From assembly GCA_043820265.1 (NCBI GenBank), contig JBDREA010000098.1, positions 1 through 46,369 on the forward strand: a DNA stretch of 46,369 bases. The letters run 5' to 3'. The number at the start of each line of letters is the position of its first letter. The first letter of the stretch is position 1. Under the pieces are notes generated by a model. It was given only the letters and a program-made list of their open reading frames with translations. It made no database searches and had not been told where the DNA came from. This DNA is from Candidatus Altiarchaeota archaeon. Its GTDB lineage: Archaea; Altiarchaeota; Altiarchaeia; IMC4; JBDREA01. This document shows, one piece after another, positions 1,126-28,448 of this stretch. Position numbers and translations under genes: made by a program.

Positions 1126-1242
1126 AACAAAGATATTCCCACACAACCAATTAAAACTGTTCCAGTCGGGTACCCCAACCCTAGACGAGAACTCTCAACA
1201 GGAAAATCCCGCTTAACAAAATAACATAAATTTCCAAAATAC

Positions 1243-1281
1243 GCCGAGGTAAACGCAAGCCTTCAGCTTGCTGACCTCGAC
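1243..1281 (+). repeat. tRNA-Ser acceptor-stem mimic hairpin, copy 1 (empty form)
   Basis: GCCGAGGTAAACGCAAGCCTTCAGCTTGCTGACCTCGAC; TACGCCGAGGT (1240-1250) equals 1418-1428 at the tRNA start. Confidence 0.8.
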
Positions 1282-1306
1282 AAGCACAACAAAGAAATGG
1301 CCTTTT

Positions 1307-1397
1307 GCCGAGGTAAACGCAAGCGCTAAAAATCGCCCTGCGATTTTTGCGCCCAATGAGCGAAGCTCATTAGGGCCTACGGCTTGCTAACCTCGGC
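1307..1397 (+). repeat. tRNA-Ser acceptor-stem mimic hairpin, copy 2, with two inserted bulged-hairpin modules (1324-1351, 1352-1375)
   Basis: GCCGAGGTAAACGCAAG[28 nt][24 nt]CCTACGGCTTGCTAACCTCGGC; ends match both strands of the tRNA-Ser acceptor stem. Confidence 0.8.
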
Positions 1398-1420
1398 TAC
1401 GTACTCAAAGATAACCCTAC

Positions 1421-1547
1421 GCCGAGGTGGCGGAGCCAGGTAACGCGCGGGCCTTGAGATCAAAAAACCAAAATCAACAAAACCGAGTGCGAGACAAGCG
1501 AGCCCGTGGTCCTTCGGACCTCTTGAGTTCAAATCTCAACCTCGGCG
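1421..1547 (+). tRNA. tRNA-Ser(TGA) with 42-nt intron at 37/38 (1459-1500)
   Basis: Acceptor GCCGAGG/CCTCGGC; anticodon arm CGGGC-CTTGAG^A-GCCCG; long variable arm; GTTCAAATC T-loop; BHB with CTTG/CAAG helix and AGA, CGA bulges. Confidence 0.95.
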
Positions 1548-1562
1548 AACTATAAAAAAAGA

Positions 1563-2318
1563 ATGGCTGAAGAAGAAAAAAAGGCAGAGGAAACAAAGGC
1601 TTCCAAGGAGAAGCCTGAAGTAAACGAAGCCCCAAAGATCCCAGAAGAAAAGCCAAAGGCAGCTGAAGCTCCGAAGGTCCAAGAAGAAAAACCCGAAGTA
1701 GCCGAAGCGTCAAAGGCTCAAGAAGAAAAGCCAAAGATAGAAGAATCTAAGCCAAAAGCTGATGAAGTATCGGCTGTCAAAAAAGAAGAGCCTAAAACTT
1801 CTAAGCCTGAAAAAAAGATTGCTAAGACAGGACAAGAAAAGACCTCCGCTGTAGAAGAAGAAAAACCCGAGGAAACAGATGAGAACTTCCAACACAGAGT
1901 CCGAGTAGGAGGCGTGGTCTTAGACGGAAACCTGCCGTTAGAGAGAGCCCTCACAAAGATAAAGGGTGTTGGACCCAGGATTTCAGCTGCCATCCGATTG
2001 TCCTATAAAACAGACAAGAAGAGAATCGGGGAATTCTCAGACTCAGAAATCGAAGAATTAGAGAAAGTCCTAGAAAACATCGCAAATCGATTACCATCAT
2101 GGATGGTCAACAGACAGAAAGACCCAACAAGCGGGAAAAACCTCCATTTCCTTGGGCCAGAATTAGACATGATACATCGAGATGATATCAACTTGATGAG
2201 AAGGCTTAAGACCTACAAAGGAAACAGACACAGCCTCAACTTACCCGTCCGAGGGCAGAGGACTAGGACGTCTTTCAGAAAAGGGACAACTATTGGAGTA
2301 AACAGGAGGAAGAAATAA
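1563..2318 (+). CDS. rps13: 30S ribosomal protein uS13 with ~105-aa K/E/P-rich N-terminal extension
   Basis: ALTKIKGVG, LPSWMVNRQKD, YKGNRHSLNLPVRGQRTR; first gene of the conserved operon. Confidence 0.96.
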   Translation: MAEEEKKAEETKASKEKPEVNEAPKIPEEKPKAAEAPKVQEEKPEVAEASKAQEEKPKIEESKPKADEVSAVKKEEPKTSKPEKKIAKTGQEKTSAVEEEKPEETDENFQHRVRVGGVVLDGNLPLERALTKIKGVGPRISAAIRLSYKTDKKRIGEFSDSEIEELEKVLENIANRLPSWMVNRQKDPTSGKNLHFLGPELDMIHRDDINLMRRLKTYKGNRHSLNLPVRGQRTRTSFRKGTTIGVNRRKK

Positions 2319-18705: not shown

Positions 18706-18788
18706 TTCTTTCTTTTTCGTCACGCTCACGACCGGAGGTCGTGGCGCACAAGGAAACTTTGTTTCCTTCGTGACGTTTTTCTTTCTTT
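18706..18788. repeat. 83-bp repeat, copy A, with two bulged-hairpin modules (18723-18746, 18747-18772)
   Basis: 82/83 identical to 18888-18970. Confidence 0.92.
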
Positions 18789-18830: not shown

Positions 18831-19032
18831 TGCGCCCACCGGGATTTGAACCCGGGTATTCAGCTTTCTCCGATCCCTTGTTTCGATTTCTTTCTTTTTC
18901 GTGACGCTCACGACCGGAGGTCGTGGCGCACAAGGAAACTTTGTTTCCTTCGTGACGTTTTTCTTTCTTTTCTAAAGAAAGAAAAAGGTTCTTGGAAGGC
19001 TGAAGTCCTAAACCAGACTAGACTATGGACGC
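18831..19032 (-). tRNA. tRNA-Gly(TCC) with 127-nt intron at 37/38 (18866-18992)
   Basis: GCGTCCA/TGGGCGC acceptor; TCAGC-CTTCCA^A-GCTGA; CCGGG-TTCAAAT-CCCGG T-arm; BHB with CTTC/GGAG helix and CAA, AAA bulges. Confidence 0.93.
18888..18970. repeat. 83-bp repeat, copy B, inside the tRNA-Gly intron
   Basis: One mismatch against copy A (G18903 vs C18721). Confidence 0.92.
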
Positions 19033-21039: not shown

Positions 21040-22088
21040 TCGATGACTATCTCTTCTAGGTCTCGTTGGAGTCCTTTCTTTTTTATTGGTGTTAGGTCTT
21101 TTTCTTTTACATAGTAGCAGTCGTTGAGGCTTCTAAGTATCGCTGCATCTGCCGTTCTTATCCCTTTTTTTATCAGGAACTCCCGGTCTTTTAGGTCTCC
21201 GATAAACACTACTTCGGCTTTTTCCAGCTGATTCCAATCCTTTTTCTTGATTTTTCTCCGAAGAAACGTCAGTCCACCGTATTCTTTCGGAAATATTCCA
21301 ACGGGCTGTATTTCCTTTTGTCCGATTTTTTCCCATAGGATCCGGTATTCTTCGATTTGTCCTGCCTTCTTTTTCATTTTAGCAAGGCTGGAATCAAGGT
21401 TTCTTATGACGTGTTCTCGTTGACCTATCTCTTTGTCTTTATGCAATTCCAAACGATATATTCTCTTGGCTTGTGTAGTCTGGTCGTTTAGTGCTTTGAT
21501 CTTTTCCTCGTTTTGAGTAATCTTTTCTTTGAGGAGTTCGACTTGTCTTCTGAGGTTTCGAAGCATCTGTTCTTCTTGGGATAATTCCTTTTTTTGTGGG
21601 TGAGATTTCTTTTTTTTGGGTTGTGGCTTCGGTTCTTCTTCAGAGAGAAACTCTGCTGCTGCTTCGATGGATATACCTTGCAGTACAAGATCTTTTACGT
21701 CGTCCCCAAGTCCTTTGGATTCTATTTTTTGGAACTTGTTTTTGTAATGTTGAAACGCGTTTAATGCTGCAGCTAATGCGTCTCTTTGATGGACGTCTCC
21801 TGGATTGAATTCCTTTGTCATTTCGTTTTTCTGCGAAACTGGTAGGGGCTCTTTTGGAGGGAAAACGGGTGCACCCAACGAAGAAGCAATCTTTGATACG
21901 AAATCGGGAACTGGGGAAACGTCTGTTGCCACAAGAGAAACGTGCCCTACGGAAATCAGATGCTCTATGGTCTTTTCAACCCCCACATGACGTCCGCTGA
22001 ATAGTTCAATTATTGATCCAGAAAGATCAATGGATGCTAGACCGATTGTTGTGCCGGGGTCTATTCCCACGATGAGATAGGGGGGCAT
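20997..22088 (-). CDS. DUF460-domain protein (RNase H-like N-domain plus coiled coil)
   Basis: LIVGIDPGTT, VATDVSP.PDFV.K, HQRDALAAA; coiled coil. Confidence 0.85.
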   Translation of the reverse strand: MPPYLIVGIDPGTTIGLASIDLSGSIIELFSGRHVGVEKTIEHLISVGHVSLVATDVSPVPDFVSKIASSLGAPVFPPKEPLPVSQKNEMTKEFNPGDVHQRDALAAALNAFQHYKNKFQKIESKGLGDDVKDLVLQGISIEAAAEFLSEEEPKPQPKKKKSHPQKKELSQEEQMLRNLRRQVELLKEKITQNEEKIKALNDQTTQAKRIYRLELHKDKEIGQREHVIRNLDSSLAKMKKKAGQIEEYRILWEKIGQKEIQPVGIFPKEYGGLTFLRRKIKKKDWNQLEKAEVVFIGDLKDREFLIKKGIRTADAAILRSLNDCYYVKEKDLTPIKKKGLQRDLEEIVIDYRLERESNPKGSS

Positions 22089-28155: not shown

Positions 28156-28215
28156 GCAAAGACTTTTAAGAGCCGCCAACATAAAGATAACTCAAATTTT
28201 ATTTGTAAGTCCAAA

Positions 28216-28411
28216 TAGCTCAGCCTAGTGCGTGAGATTTCGCTACGCGAAATCTACGCCCTAAGGATGCGAAGCATCCTTGGGCACTAGGAATCACGAA
28301 GTGATTCCTGTGTGCAAGTTCGCTTTGAGCGAACTTAGCACCCAACGTCGATTTCATCGACGTTAGGGCGCAGAAATCCCAAAAGGGATTTCTCGCGGAG
28401 CGCGTGCTTGG
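28216..28411 (+). repeat. duplicated tRNA-Thr 5' half interrupted by six abutting bulged-hairpin modules (28231-28397)
   Basis: TAGCTCAGCCTAGTG + 167 nt + GAGCGCGTGCTTGG versus tRNA TAGCTCAGCCTGGTGGAGCGCGTGCTTGG. Confidence 0.88.
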
Positions 28412-28448
28412 CGAGAAAGTAAGAATAAACGTAAAGTAGAAAAATTAA

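Follow-up and report, generated by a model that had tools for sequence, protein, structure and literature searches.

Why does the 5' flank of an archaeal tRNA gene carry two hairpins that begin with the first bases of that very gene, and why is one of them enlarged by further hairpins? The question is raised by a contig of a Candidatus Altiarchaeota archaeon (46,369 nucleotides, analyzed at full length and here called the window), in which two such units stand before tRNA-Ser(UGA) (Table 1). The first 8 nt of this tRNA gene are repeated at 1243 and 1307, as the initial annotation had recognized. Unit 1 has the layout GCCGAGGT-aaac-GCAAGC-cttca-GCTTGC-tg-ACCTCGAC, in which the 8-nt arm matches tRNA nt 1-8; four nucleotides separate it from an inner hairpin (6-bp stem, 5-nt loop), and two more lie between this hairpin and the inverted arm. 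With the 3' arm ACCTCGAC its second pair is a C.A mismatch, leaving an outer helix of 6-7 bp on the plus strand; the outer helix of unit 2 is a perfect 8 bp (arms GCCGAGGT/ACCTCGGC). After removal of a 52-nt block (about 1324-1375) from unit 2 by script, the two units agree at 35/39 positions; MAFFT misplaced this 52-nt gap at the sequence end, and the figure given is that of the script-based removal. Three cut points are equally possible, with the insert starting anywhere from 1323 to 1325. No target-site duplication is seen at the junction of the insert, read from the sequence, nor around units 1 and 2, whose flanks differ (aatac/aagca vs ctttt/tacgt). Hence the earlier description of the second copy as the first plus two modules, one of 28 nt with a T bulged on the 5' side and one of 24 nt with an A bulged on the 3' side, inserted without target-site duplication, holds. 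So does its reading as an empty and a filled site: a unit homologue in a genome of the same genus (G001:C235) is likewise empty, and by eye the spacer 3' of that homologue resembles the one between units 1 and 2 (common motif ATGGC..TTTT). The spacers at our locus (23 nt and 25 nt) are without coding capacity. The tRNA-Ser(UGA) gene, with an intron of about 42-45 nt, is not called by default ARAGORN.

Table 1. Features of the window discussed in the text.
Feature	Position	Strand	Description
Unit 1, 'empty' tRNA-end hairpin repeat	1243..1281	+	50.3 bits with covariance model R1
Spacer separating units 1 and 2	1282..1306	+	
Unit 2, hairpin repeat with 52-nt double hairpin in inner-hairpin loop	1307..1397	+	from sequence and predicted fold
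L module of unit 2 insert	1324..1351 (28 nt)	+	clamp CGC/GCG, 5'-side bulged T, 9-bp stem, 3-nt loop
R module of unit 2 insert	1352..1375 (24 nt)	+	clamp CCC/GGG, 7-bp stem, GAA loop, 3'-side bulged A
tRNA-Ser(UGA)	1421..1547	+	Rfam match 42.8 bits; intron at canonical position, about 1459-1501
Ribosomal protein S13 gene	1563..2318	+	first gene of S13-S4-S11-RpoD cluster; starts 15 nt past tRNA-Ser
Second, identical copy of the tRNA-Gly intron LR double hairpin	18723..18772	-	in T-rich cassette repeat between tRNA-Gly and tRNA-Gln
tRNA-Gly(UCC)	18831..19032	-	canonical intron holds T-rich palindrome and LR double hairpin (18905-18954)
Partial tRNA-Thr(GGU) copy	28211..28415	+	D-arm and 5' side of anticodon arm

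The pair of units is not a chance arrangement. The 18-mer that opens them has no copy in the whole 1.97-Mb assembly other than those at 1243 and 1307, and their fold energies lie far beyond those of shuffled sequences (z -4.4 and -7.2; 0/200 shuffles equal). They are also not a known conserved non-coding RNA, a match that the initial annotation had held open against its own reading. Only the tRNA passes the Rfam gathering score in the region of the units, and the best other match is SNORA31 (19.3 bits against a cut-off of 40, E 0.46), so that a known RNA family was ruled out. Descent from tRNA copies shrunk by deletion between D-loop and T-loop arrays was dropped as well, since no D-arm or T-arm residue is left. 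The earlier name 'acceptor-stem mimic' fits in part. The 5' arm is the tRNA start, but the 3' arm of many relatives repeats tRNA nt 1-9/10 in inverted form (CACCTC...) and not the 3' end of the tRNA (CAACCTC...), suggesting that the likeness to an acceptor stem is partly a by-product of an inverted copy of the tRNA 5' end.

Units of this kind are found beyond the locus. An earlier structural scan (8-bp arms with an inner hairpin) gave 66 matches, mostly overlapping or unrelated, among which the units on contigs C86 and C2 were absent; it was replaced by a covariance model, R1, built from 13 units. Applied to our genome (G000), R1 detects 9 different units, spread over 5 tRNA loci, and it overlooks unit 2 because of the insert that this unit carries. 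Matches occur in 19/49 genomes of the order and in 23/61 Altiarchaeota genomes, and in 0/5 outgroup archaeal MAGs. Among 33 matches examined in relatives, 31 precede, by 7-225 nt, a tRNA gene (Ser, Met) on the same strand and share its first 7 nt; the spacers span 6-225 nt, with a minimum of 7 nt by the ARAGORN tRNA start and of 6 nt by sequence reading. Orientation and position relative to the tRNAs are constant across two orders. An A recurs opposite position 3 (CCTCAGC) and seems to be conserved, not random. An assembly artefact was rejected, as the same architecture recurs in 23 independently assembled genomes. By the genomes compared, each unit is a copy of an Altiarchaeota-specific hairpin repeat that precedes tRNA-Ser and tRNA-Met genes.

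The arms of the units change together with the tRNA. In the A1 unit set 92.3% of the cells pair and 9/14 pairs have changed on both sides, a result matched by 0/500 shuffles, and one-sided (G.U) cells amount to 0/182. Counted on the tRNA strand over 43 places, the pair cells comprise 532 Watson-Crick pairs, 30 A.C, 9 G.U, 29 others and 2 gaps. At the orthologous tRNA-Ser(GCU) locus the sequence is GTCGAGG in our genome and GCTGAGG in G001, shared within each genome by the tRNA, the two leader hairpins and a functionless 3' relic. As this relic follows the tRNA sequence too, the tracking needs no selection on an RNA. We favor, at somewhat better than even odds, the view that units and double hairpins are palindromic repeats of the DNA level that gene conversion would hold in step with the tRNA.

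A functional role of the units in the pre-tRNA 5' leader has to be weighed against this view. There they might guide or delay RNase P or RNase Z, protect the 5' end or hold the acceptor strands, with the insert being tolerated or modulating. A function in the leader would also explain the constant orientation and position of the units, kept in 31 of the 33 matches and across two orders. The strong arm covariation speaks for it too, as do spacers down to 6-7 nt that leave no room for a promoter and TATA-like boxes seen by eye 15-45 nt upstream of the distal unit at many loci. The genome further holds a candidate RNase P RNA (39 bits, below the Rfam cut-off). Folding the leader together with the tRNA, as the initial annotation had advised, does pair the unit arms with the tRNA acceptor strands in the minimum-energy structure, but this structure has an ensemble frequency of 0.0008 and the pairing follows trivially from the repeated complementary 8-mers. 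The functionless relic, moreover, co-varies equally well, and the excess of A.C over G.U (30 to 9) argues against selection for pairing in the RNA. Nor do the units, by sequence and predicted fold, resemble an RNase P minihelix with its continuous stack of about 12 bp, T-loop cap and single-stranded 3' end: their loops of 3-8 nt are without TTCRA and form no T-loop, an asymmetric 4x2 internal loop between the outer 8 bp and the inner 6 bp interrupts the stack, and the nucleotide that follows the 3' arm shows no conservation. Upstream units are finally absent from the syntenic locus in G001, from 4/10 inspected tRNA-Ser loci of relatives and, as far as R1 detects them, from 38/61 Altiarchaeota genomes. 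A search of sequencing runs gave three DNA runs that share 3-5% of the sampled words, and none of RNA. We consider a leader function unlikely, and the roles suggested by the initial annotation, as RNase P/Z substrates or as competitors for the 5' strand of the tRNA, find no support here.

The insert of unit 2 belongs to a second family of the genome. We term its members double-hairpin elements (DHEs), each made of a 5'-bulged hairpin (L) followed by a 3'-bulged hairpin (R), both closed by a 3-bp G+C clamp. A strict scan for single hairpin modules gave 294 raw matches and 168 after overlap removal, against about 10 in a Markov-1 genome, and 41/168 lie within 300 nt of the 24 detected tRNAs where 1.4 are expected. 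Adjacent modules are strictly ordered: the strict scan has 42 LR, 0 RL and 2 LL pairs, and the sensitive scan 56 LR, 0 RL, 5 RR and 1 LL (Markov-1 control: RL 1). The sensitive detector is unspecific for single hairpins (225 Markov-1 matches vs 410 real), and only its adjacency patterns were used. These include nested arrays (LLRR three times, LLLRRR once), and an identical inner pair stands within different outer pairs on contigs C42 and C51. By blastn 49/63 LR pairs are unique in sequence. The position profile of 74 oriented modules reads C-N-C-T-A-R, with CNC-T-A at the base of L modules and no GTAG; DHE ends have the form CNCTAA.../...TTAGNG. Overlap with stop-free frames has to be read against a genome of which 93% lies inside some frame of at least 100 codons. 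In unit 2 the insert is one LR pair; the minimum-energy and centroid predictions both fold it into two hairpins stacked within a multiloop, and every bulge is a single base. DHEs are, on this pattern, an abundant family of variable sequence and constant structure in this genome. The notion of discrete inserting units thus stands for the type of element, which recurs genome-wide and at fixed positions in tRNA copies, and is refined in one respect: the inserting unit would be the LR pair, a 52-nt double hairpin, and not each single module.

Where the modules sit is highly restricted. The same geometry that the initial annotation had seen in a tRNA-Thr array is indeed present in the partial tRNA-Thr copy of the window, whose D-loop holds six modules (28231-28396) immediately ahead of the 3' D-stem strand; one parser reads their bulge sides as L L L R R R, and the register of the last module is ambiguous in a stricter one. 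Altogether, 6 D-loop arrays all stand just before G22 (21/22) of pseudo-tRNA copies and 7 T-loop arrays all between A59 and T60 (59/60), the host copies being without an anticodon arm. Such hairpins also lie in the canonical introns of 6 tRNAs. One of these, tRNA-Gly(UCC), was detected only after in silico removal of the hairpin pair, and at least 5 tRNA genes of this genome are uncalled by standard ARAGORN and were found once hairpin pairs or palindromes had been removed in silico. Modules further occur in the cores of MITE-like palindromes and in palindromes unrelated to tRNA.

Comparison with relatives, as proposed earlier for copy number and module content, reveals variation in both. The G001 locus syntenic to ours has no upstream unit, unit types are swapped among tRNA-Ser loci between the two genomes, and at the orthologous tRNA-Ser(GCU) locus a four-module array is present in our genome and absent in G001. 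The latter difference also takes in flanking sequence of the relic, and no orthologous site differing by exactly one DHE was found between the genomes. We also found no transposase, recombinase or other enzyme linked to units or DHEs in this genome. A single Y1 transposase match (PF01797) adjoins a 430-aa ORF and has no flanking modules, and two reverse transcriptases (RVT_1 matches) are not near any array inspected; both were rejected as an explanation of the elements, as they are unlinked to modules and arrays.

The two reverse transcriptase genes do bear on the idea that the modules and the T-rich cassette move like introns at the RNA level, with the splicing endonuclease and the RtcB ligase placing them into tRNA-like loops and a reverse transcriptase copying the product into DNA. 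T-arm arrays lie between loop nt 6 and 7 (59/60), a geometry identical to that of the canonical intron site 37/38, where six tRNAs carry such hairpins. By eye, 3/7 T-loop arrays end in TGAG-NN and could pair with the loop TTCA as a 4-bp central helix, but 4/7 are without complementarity. The predicted fold of unit 2 contains no bulge-helix-bulge (two 3-nt bulges 4 bp apart), and module stems have no G.U excess (3 G.T or T.G among 12 internal mismatches). A position inside a complete tRNA gene, as expected of archaeal tRNA introns, applies only to the arrays in the six canonical introns, not to unit 2, which has no tRNA around it, nor to the D-loop and T-loop hosts, in which the missing anticodon arm means that nothing selects for splicing. 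The occurrence in MITE cores and non-tRNA palindromes also stands against such movers, which we regard as very doubtful. We give just as little credence to att-site scars, that is, to units and partial tRNA copies as duplications left by integrative elements that use tRNA genes, with hairpins arising by later decay and not by insertion. Same-strand partial copies within 700 nt accompany 11/22 tRNAs, the upstream copies stopping in the anticodon loop and the downstream relics beginning in the T-loop; these two loops are reportedly, in an account attributed to Williams in 2002, the classical crossover places of integration. Contig C162, with two tRNA-Ser genes with encoded CCA ends and taken as phage-like or bacterial, was excluded from this count, yet it is included among the 24 tRNAs of the proximity count. 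Partial tRNA genes derived from integration are documented in archaea (PMC3293823; bioRxiv 10.1101/2022.07.05.498093), and in both systems tRNA fragments stand beside an intact gene and are broken in the anticodon and T loops. Such scars are direct tRNA repeats bordering an integrase-encoding element, but the gap between copy and tRNA is only 6-225 nt here, with no integrase, recombinase or element between them. The inverted 3' arm, which integration models do not predict, the LR order (42 to 0), the nesting and the fixed points at 21/22 and 59/60 would all be left unexplained.

We return to the preferred reading, to which we assign a probability of roughly 0.55: the locus would consist of two stacked layers of non-coding palindromic DNA, a tRNA-end hairpin repeat and an inserted DHE, selfish or neutral. 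In the first layer a unit would consist of a short, variable hairpin between the first 7-10 nt of the neighboring tRNA gene and their inverted copy, and it would probably lie in the transcribed leader. Its arms may follow the local tRNA acceptor sequence by homogenization of the DNA, presumably through gene conversion among the short direct repeats of one locus together with correction between the palindrome arms. In the second layer, unit 2 would be a hairpin of the unit 1 type whose inner loop took in one 52-nt DHE. Such elements appear to land at the exact edge of the loops of existing helices and in the center of older DHEs, giving rise to nested arrays, and as selfish or neutral mobile DNA they would survive only at harmless sites, such as pseudo-tRNA copies, tRNA introns, MITE cores, terminator palindromes and this leader hairpin. 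The uniqueness of most LR pairs, unlike ordinary MITE or REP families, counts against this reading and leaves room for de novo generation or very old copies. A bolder and rather improbable extension is that Altiarchaeota carry a structure-targeting micro-element of a kind not described before: a double hairpin, about 52 nt long and with mirrored bulges, that would insert into DNA or RNA where a hairpin loop has its 3' edge. The targets would be position 6|7 in anticodon and T loops of 7 nt, the D-loop end, the center of an earlier element and the tRNA-end hairpin with its loop. A single mechanism would in that case account for tRNA introns, disrupted tRNA copies, nested arrays and MITE cores, with the tRNA-end hairpins as landing pads.

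Hairpin-forming mini-repeats are known from bacteria and organelles, and several systems share traits with the elements described here. Bacterial REPs and BIMEs carry a GTAG or CGTC tag beside the palindrome, and RAYT genes are flanked by REPs. Our modules resemble them as imperfect bulged palindromes of 20-40 nt with inverted clusters and compensatory stem substitutions, but differ in that no such tag and no stand-alone, REP-flanked RAYT was found in this genome, in their far higher diversity and in the insertion into loops of other hairpins. Intron transposition occurs in Thermoproteales, and the similar sequences in introns of different tRNAs recall such systems of tRNA disruption and intron spread. 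Similar in form are the mitochondrial DHEs of chytrids and fission yeast, small non-coding elements of two adjacent hairpins, located between genes and inside structural RNA genes and thought to be mobile without a known enzyme (PMC10085805). Two adjacent hairpins are the repeated unit here as well; however, mitochondrial copies are nearly identical, even between species, and the archaeal pairs are mostly unique. Their host is an organelle, not an archaeal chromosome, and as far as that description goes, mirrored single-base bulges, 3-bp clamps, central nesting and a preference for tRNA loops are features of our elements only (PMC10085805). Within the phylum, Ca. Altiarchaeum hamiconexum is given, in one survey, the highest density of conserved MITEs among archaea, 146 per Mb (PMC11602168). 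Our units are likewise non-coding, with terminal inverted repeats (8-bp arms, one mismatch in unit 1), and MITE-like palindromes of this genome carry modules in their cores. In contrast to MITEs, the units have no target-site duplication, and their arms are the neighboring tRNA 5' end instead of fixed element ends; the LR pairs, for their part, form no large set of near-identical copies, and the one PF01797 match of this genome is unlinked to them.

In the open literature searched we found no hairpin repeats that copy a tRNA 5' end and change with it, no LR-ordered nesting double hairpins and no insertion at constant points of tRNA-like loops, the canonical intron site among these. Among the matches listed there was no archaeal 'double-hairpin element' and nothing on such elements in connection with Altiarchaeota tRNA introns; those listed for Altiarchaeum repeats and palindromes concern, by title and abstract, only CRISPR, viruses, MITEs, a review and symbiosis. 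Since at least five tRNA genes of our genome stayed uncalled until hairpins were removed, the tRNA sets of Altiarchaeota MAGs are probably under-called. The combination of three features in one archaeal phylum, tRNA-copying hairpins, nested LR double hairpins and fixed sites in tRNA-like loops, bears on the open question of how introns, fragments and split forms of archaeal tRNA genes originate. If the single mechanism of the bolder extension were to act on RNA, through the splicing endonuclease, RtcB and a reverse transcriptase, Altiarchaeota would be a present-day case of archaeal tRNA intron spread.

Upstream of tRNA-Ser(UGA), the window carries two hairpin repeats, units 1 and 2, whose arms repeat the 5' end of the tRNA (see table). 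The initial annotation read them as an empty and a filled site, and this is borne out: once 52 nt are taken out of unit 2, the two agree at 35 of 39 positions. The insert lacks a target-site duplication (zero duplicated bases), as had been proposed, and its cut point is ambiguous over three adjacent positions. On either strand, both units give the expected fold (z -4.4 to -7.2; 0 of 200 shuffles as good), and their first 18 nt are unique to them within the assembly. Rfam reported only tRNA here and no known conserved ncRNA family over the units. The contig belongs to a 1.97-Mb assembly (172 contigs, 45% G+C), and its S11 gene is closest, among named relatives, to those of Altiarchaeota MAGs (78-81% identity). 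ARAGORN at default settings does not call the tRNA-Ser(UGA), which is followed, after a gap of 15 nt, by S13, S4, S11, RpoD, tRNA-Leu, L18e and L13. The interval before the S13 start codon is empty in the window, while relatives' loci L002 (G001:C229), L007 (G035:C207) and L020 (G017:C11) hold there a related palindrome, GCCGAGGG...CCCTCGGC, or a repeat of the final 14 nt of the tRNA. In the stretch from the beta-lactamase-fold gene to tRNA-Ser/S13, a short hairpin at 1164-1190 (AGTCGGG-loop-CCC-TA-GACGAGA, bordered by AGTC and (T/G)GACGAGA) is conserved in six or more relatives (L002, L006, L007, L011, L012, L020); its stem shows compensatory changes, the spacer around it is not alignable, and it has no Rfam match.

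Units, inserted hairpins and associated genes in the window (contig C98) and on other contigs of the same genome (G000)
Feature	Position	Strand	Description
Metallo-beta-lactamase-fold gene	496-1146	minus	divergent; on the other side of the units from tRNA-Ser(UGA)
Unit 1	1243-1281		5' GCCGAGGT = tRNA nt 1-8; 3' end = inverted copy of GCCGAGGT
Unit 2	1307-1397		5' GCCGAGGT = tRNA nt 1-8; 3' end = inverted copy of GCCGAGGT
Insert hairpin 1	1324-1351		clamp CGC/GCG, bulged T on 5' side, 9-bp stem
Insert hairpin 2	1352-1375		clamp CCC/GGG, 7-bp stem, bulged A on 3' side
tRNA-Ser(UGA)	1421-1547		intron at canonical position; Rfam 42.8 bits
tRNA-Gly(UCC)	18831-19032	minus	unannotated; canonical intron with T-rich palindrome and double hairpin
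Units	C141		upstream of tRNA-Ser(GCU)
Two units	C2		upstream of tRNA-Ser(GGA)
Two units	C86		upstream of CAU tRNA
Three units	C154	minus	upstream of a degenerate tRNA-like sequence (21460-21730), built on its own 5' end

The units form a family whose arms vary exactly with the acceptor of the local tRNA (GTCGAGG, GCCGAGG, GCCGAAG or GCTGAGG). When 13 units from six genomes are aligned, 92.3% of cells are paired and 9 of 14 pairs have changed on both sides, a level of pairing that 0 of 500 shuffles and no slid register approach. R1, a covariance model of this alignment, finds nine distinct units at five loci of the genome. It also matches 19 of the 49 genomes from the order and 23 of the 61 from the phylum, among them 5 of 8 genomes of one family in a second order. 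The outgroup, a small control, gave none in five MAGs (labelled Iainarchaeum, Thermoplasmatales, Hydrothermarchaeota, Bathyarchaeia and Micrarchaeota). Among the relatives' matches with DNA retrieved, 31 of 33 sit 7-225 nt upstream of a same-strand tRNA and two lack one; these tRNAs are mostly tRNA-Ser, with three tRNA-Met, and the few ARAGORN labels Ala, Thr and Pro (with introns) for genes starting GCCGAGGTGG are probably mis-assigned. The tRNA-like sequence on C154, whose acceptor is GCTGAGG and whose anticodon region holds a long insert, was called as a tRNA by none of the tools used. Regarding the units as acceptor-stem mimics, as first suggested, holds for the likeness only, which arises because each is a palindrome on the 5' end of the tRNA gene. 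In many relatives the outer helix reaches 9-11 bp with a 3' arm that is an inverted copy of tRNA nt 8-10 (CACCTC...), differing from the tRNA's own 3' end (CAACCTC...). The second hairpin of C141 and of the same-genus genome G001 pairs tRNA nt 6-13 with a complement absent from the whole tRNA.

The inserted hairpins belong to a separate, abundant class of modules. A strict scan of the genome (3-bp clamp, one bulged base, perfect stem of at least 7 bp, loop 3-6) gave 294 raw matches, 168 without overlaps, versus 10 in a Markov-1 random genome. Clamps include CGC/GCG (45), CAC/GTG (36) and CCC/GGG (27); modules with T bulged on the 5' side (L; 59) and with A bulged on the 3' side (R; 46) are the two strands of one design. 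The 74 perfect T-bulged modules share the loose consensus C-N-C-T-A-R-R-A-W, and G.T is not over-represented among single internal mismatches (3 of 12). Neighbouring modules of the strict scan are ordered LR 42 times and RL never; the rest are LL (2), LLRR (2), LLR (1), LRR (1) and LLLRRL (1), the last being the window's tRNA-Thr array with an ambiguous register of its final module. A sensitive detector, used for adjacency patterns only since its singles are at chance level (410 real vs 225 control), counts LR 56, RL 0, RR 5, LL 1, LLRR 3 and LLLRRR 1, and one RL pair in the control sequence. These patterns make the LR pair of ~50-56 nt the elementary unit and larger arrays nested pairs. The unit 2 insert is one such pair; discrete insertion, supported by the empty and filled units, would hence concern the pair and not, as initially held, the single module. 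That a pair moves as a whole into the middle of an older one is best supported here by the pseudo-tRNA copies on C42 and C51, in which different outer pairs enclose the same inner pair. Relatives elsewhere in the genome exist for 14 of 63 LR pairs, mostly as part of a larger repeat. Relatives' loci, some overlapping and seven chosen because of module matches, are enriched (51 modules in 158,577 nt vs 3 in control); from loci of other phyla the type is absent (1 in 134,969 nt vs 2 in control).

Modules cluster at tRNA genes: 41 of the 168 lie within 300 nt of the 24 detected tRNAs (1.4 expected), and 14 of these tRNAs have at least one within 400 nt. With contig C162 omitted, 11 of 22 tRNAs have same-strand partial copies within 700 nt. 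C162:1-2457 (2.4 kb), with two tRNA-Ser genes with encoded CCA ends among small ORFs, looks phage-like or bacterial and not part of this archaeon. Partial copies flank tRNAs on C136, C42, C86, C51, C141, C2, C168 and C48 and at window 28211-28415; upstream ones stop in the anticodon loop, downstream relics start in or near the T-loop, and these ends fall at intron positions 37/38 and 59/60. Arrays stand exactly before the D-stem 3' strand in six upstream copies (C136, C42, C86, C51 twice, window tRNA-Thr), and the likeness in geometry between unit 2 and the tRNA-Thr array, noted earlier, holds. Seven 3' copies (C136, C141, C168 twice, C48, C2, C74) have the array between A59 and T60. Both 37/38 and 59/60 separate the sixth from the seventh base of a 7-nt loop closed by a 5-bp stem. 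Modules also occupy cores of MITE-like palindromes (ccaccggtcta...ttgaccggtgg; caaata...tatttg). After in silico removal of arrays, ARAGORN calls tRNAs with hairpins and a T-rich palindrome in the canonical intron on C10, C125, C166 and C86 (5.3 kb) and the window's tRNA-Gly(UCC), six with the already known C145. The tRNA-Gly(UCC) had been missed by ARAGORN and the Rfam scan; just after it, upstream of tRNA-Gln, this cassette occurs again with an identical double hairpin (18723-18772). Many tRNA genes have the T-rich palindrome (AACCYTTTTCTTTT..AAAAGAAAAGCGTT, then CACGRAAAAGAAAAC) directly at their 3' end (C141:21887-21935, C133:5794-5834, C51:22053-22087; relatives' L014, L029, L030, L011, L012). 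It looks like a two-way oligo-T terminator, and it also begins the canonical intron in several tRNAs, a place in which a terminator would be expected to shorten the precursor.

That the units serve as a functional leader RNA is unlikely in our view. They probably do lie within the tRNA leader: in relatives the gap from the proximal unit to the tRNA can be as short as 6-7 nt, the 23-nt spacer between unit 2 and the tRNA in the window has no TATA-like box, and A+T-rich boxes stand 15-45 nt upstream of the distal unit at many loci, at no fixed distance, which places the promoter probably upstream of the units. In the minimum-energy fold of 1235-1550, unit arms do pair with the acceptor strands of the tRNA; the fold makes up 0.0008 of the ensemble, and pairings of this sort are bound to appear on paper wherever complementary 8-mers are repeated. 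The 13-unit alignment has no G.U among 182 cells. Over 43 distinct places (602 cells, tRNA strand), 532 are Watson-Crick, 30 A.C, 9 G.U, 29 other and 2 gaps; a sense-strand helix under selection should give the opposite A.C:G.U ratio, although many A.C cells are one recurrent feature (3' arm ending CCTCAGC), hence not independent, and its recurrent A may carry meaning. Most telling are the orthologous tRNA-Ser(GCU) loci of G000 and G001: both comprise hairpin A, hairpin B, tRNA, T-rich palindrome and a 3' tRNA relic, and every piece, the functionless relic included, reads GTCGAGG/CCTCGAC in the former and GCTGAGG/CCTCAGC in the latter. The locus thus evolves in concert, for which selection on the hairpins is not needed.

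Intron-like mobility of the modules at the RNA level seems improbable: a bulge-helix-bulge signature is partial in three of the seven T-loop arrays and absent around the unit 2 insert. Integration is documented to leave partial tRNA genes behind (PMC3293823; bioRxiv 10.1101/2022.07.05.498093); we give little credence to units and partial copies being integration scars. We favour, at roughly 0.55, both the units and the LR pairs being DNA-level palindromic elements, selfish or neutral. The genome has a single Y1 transposase, beside a 430-aa ORF and with no modules at its flanks, and two reverse transcriptases. Among known elements, the double-hairpin elements of fungal mitochondria, bacterial REP/BIME repeats and MITEs come closest. 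The texts consulted contain no description of hairpins copying and tracking an adjacent tRNA 5' end, of strict LR order with nesting, or of the fixed loop positions of the arrays. According to PMC11602168, Altiarchaeum is the archaeon with the highest MITE density, and some of the present repeats might be among the MITEs tabulated in its supplement. The units turn over fast: the syntenic locus of G001 lacks an upstream unit and has a related palindrome between tRNA and S13, the unit most similar to unit 1 precedes tRNA-Ser(GGA) in G001, and the inner hairpin of the G001 GCU-locus unit matches that of the G000 GGA-locus unit. The units would be transcribed as leader and homogenised by gene conversion and arm-to-arm correction, and LR pairs would arrive by insertion and not by de novo growth.
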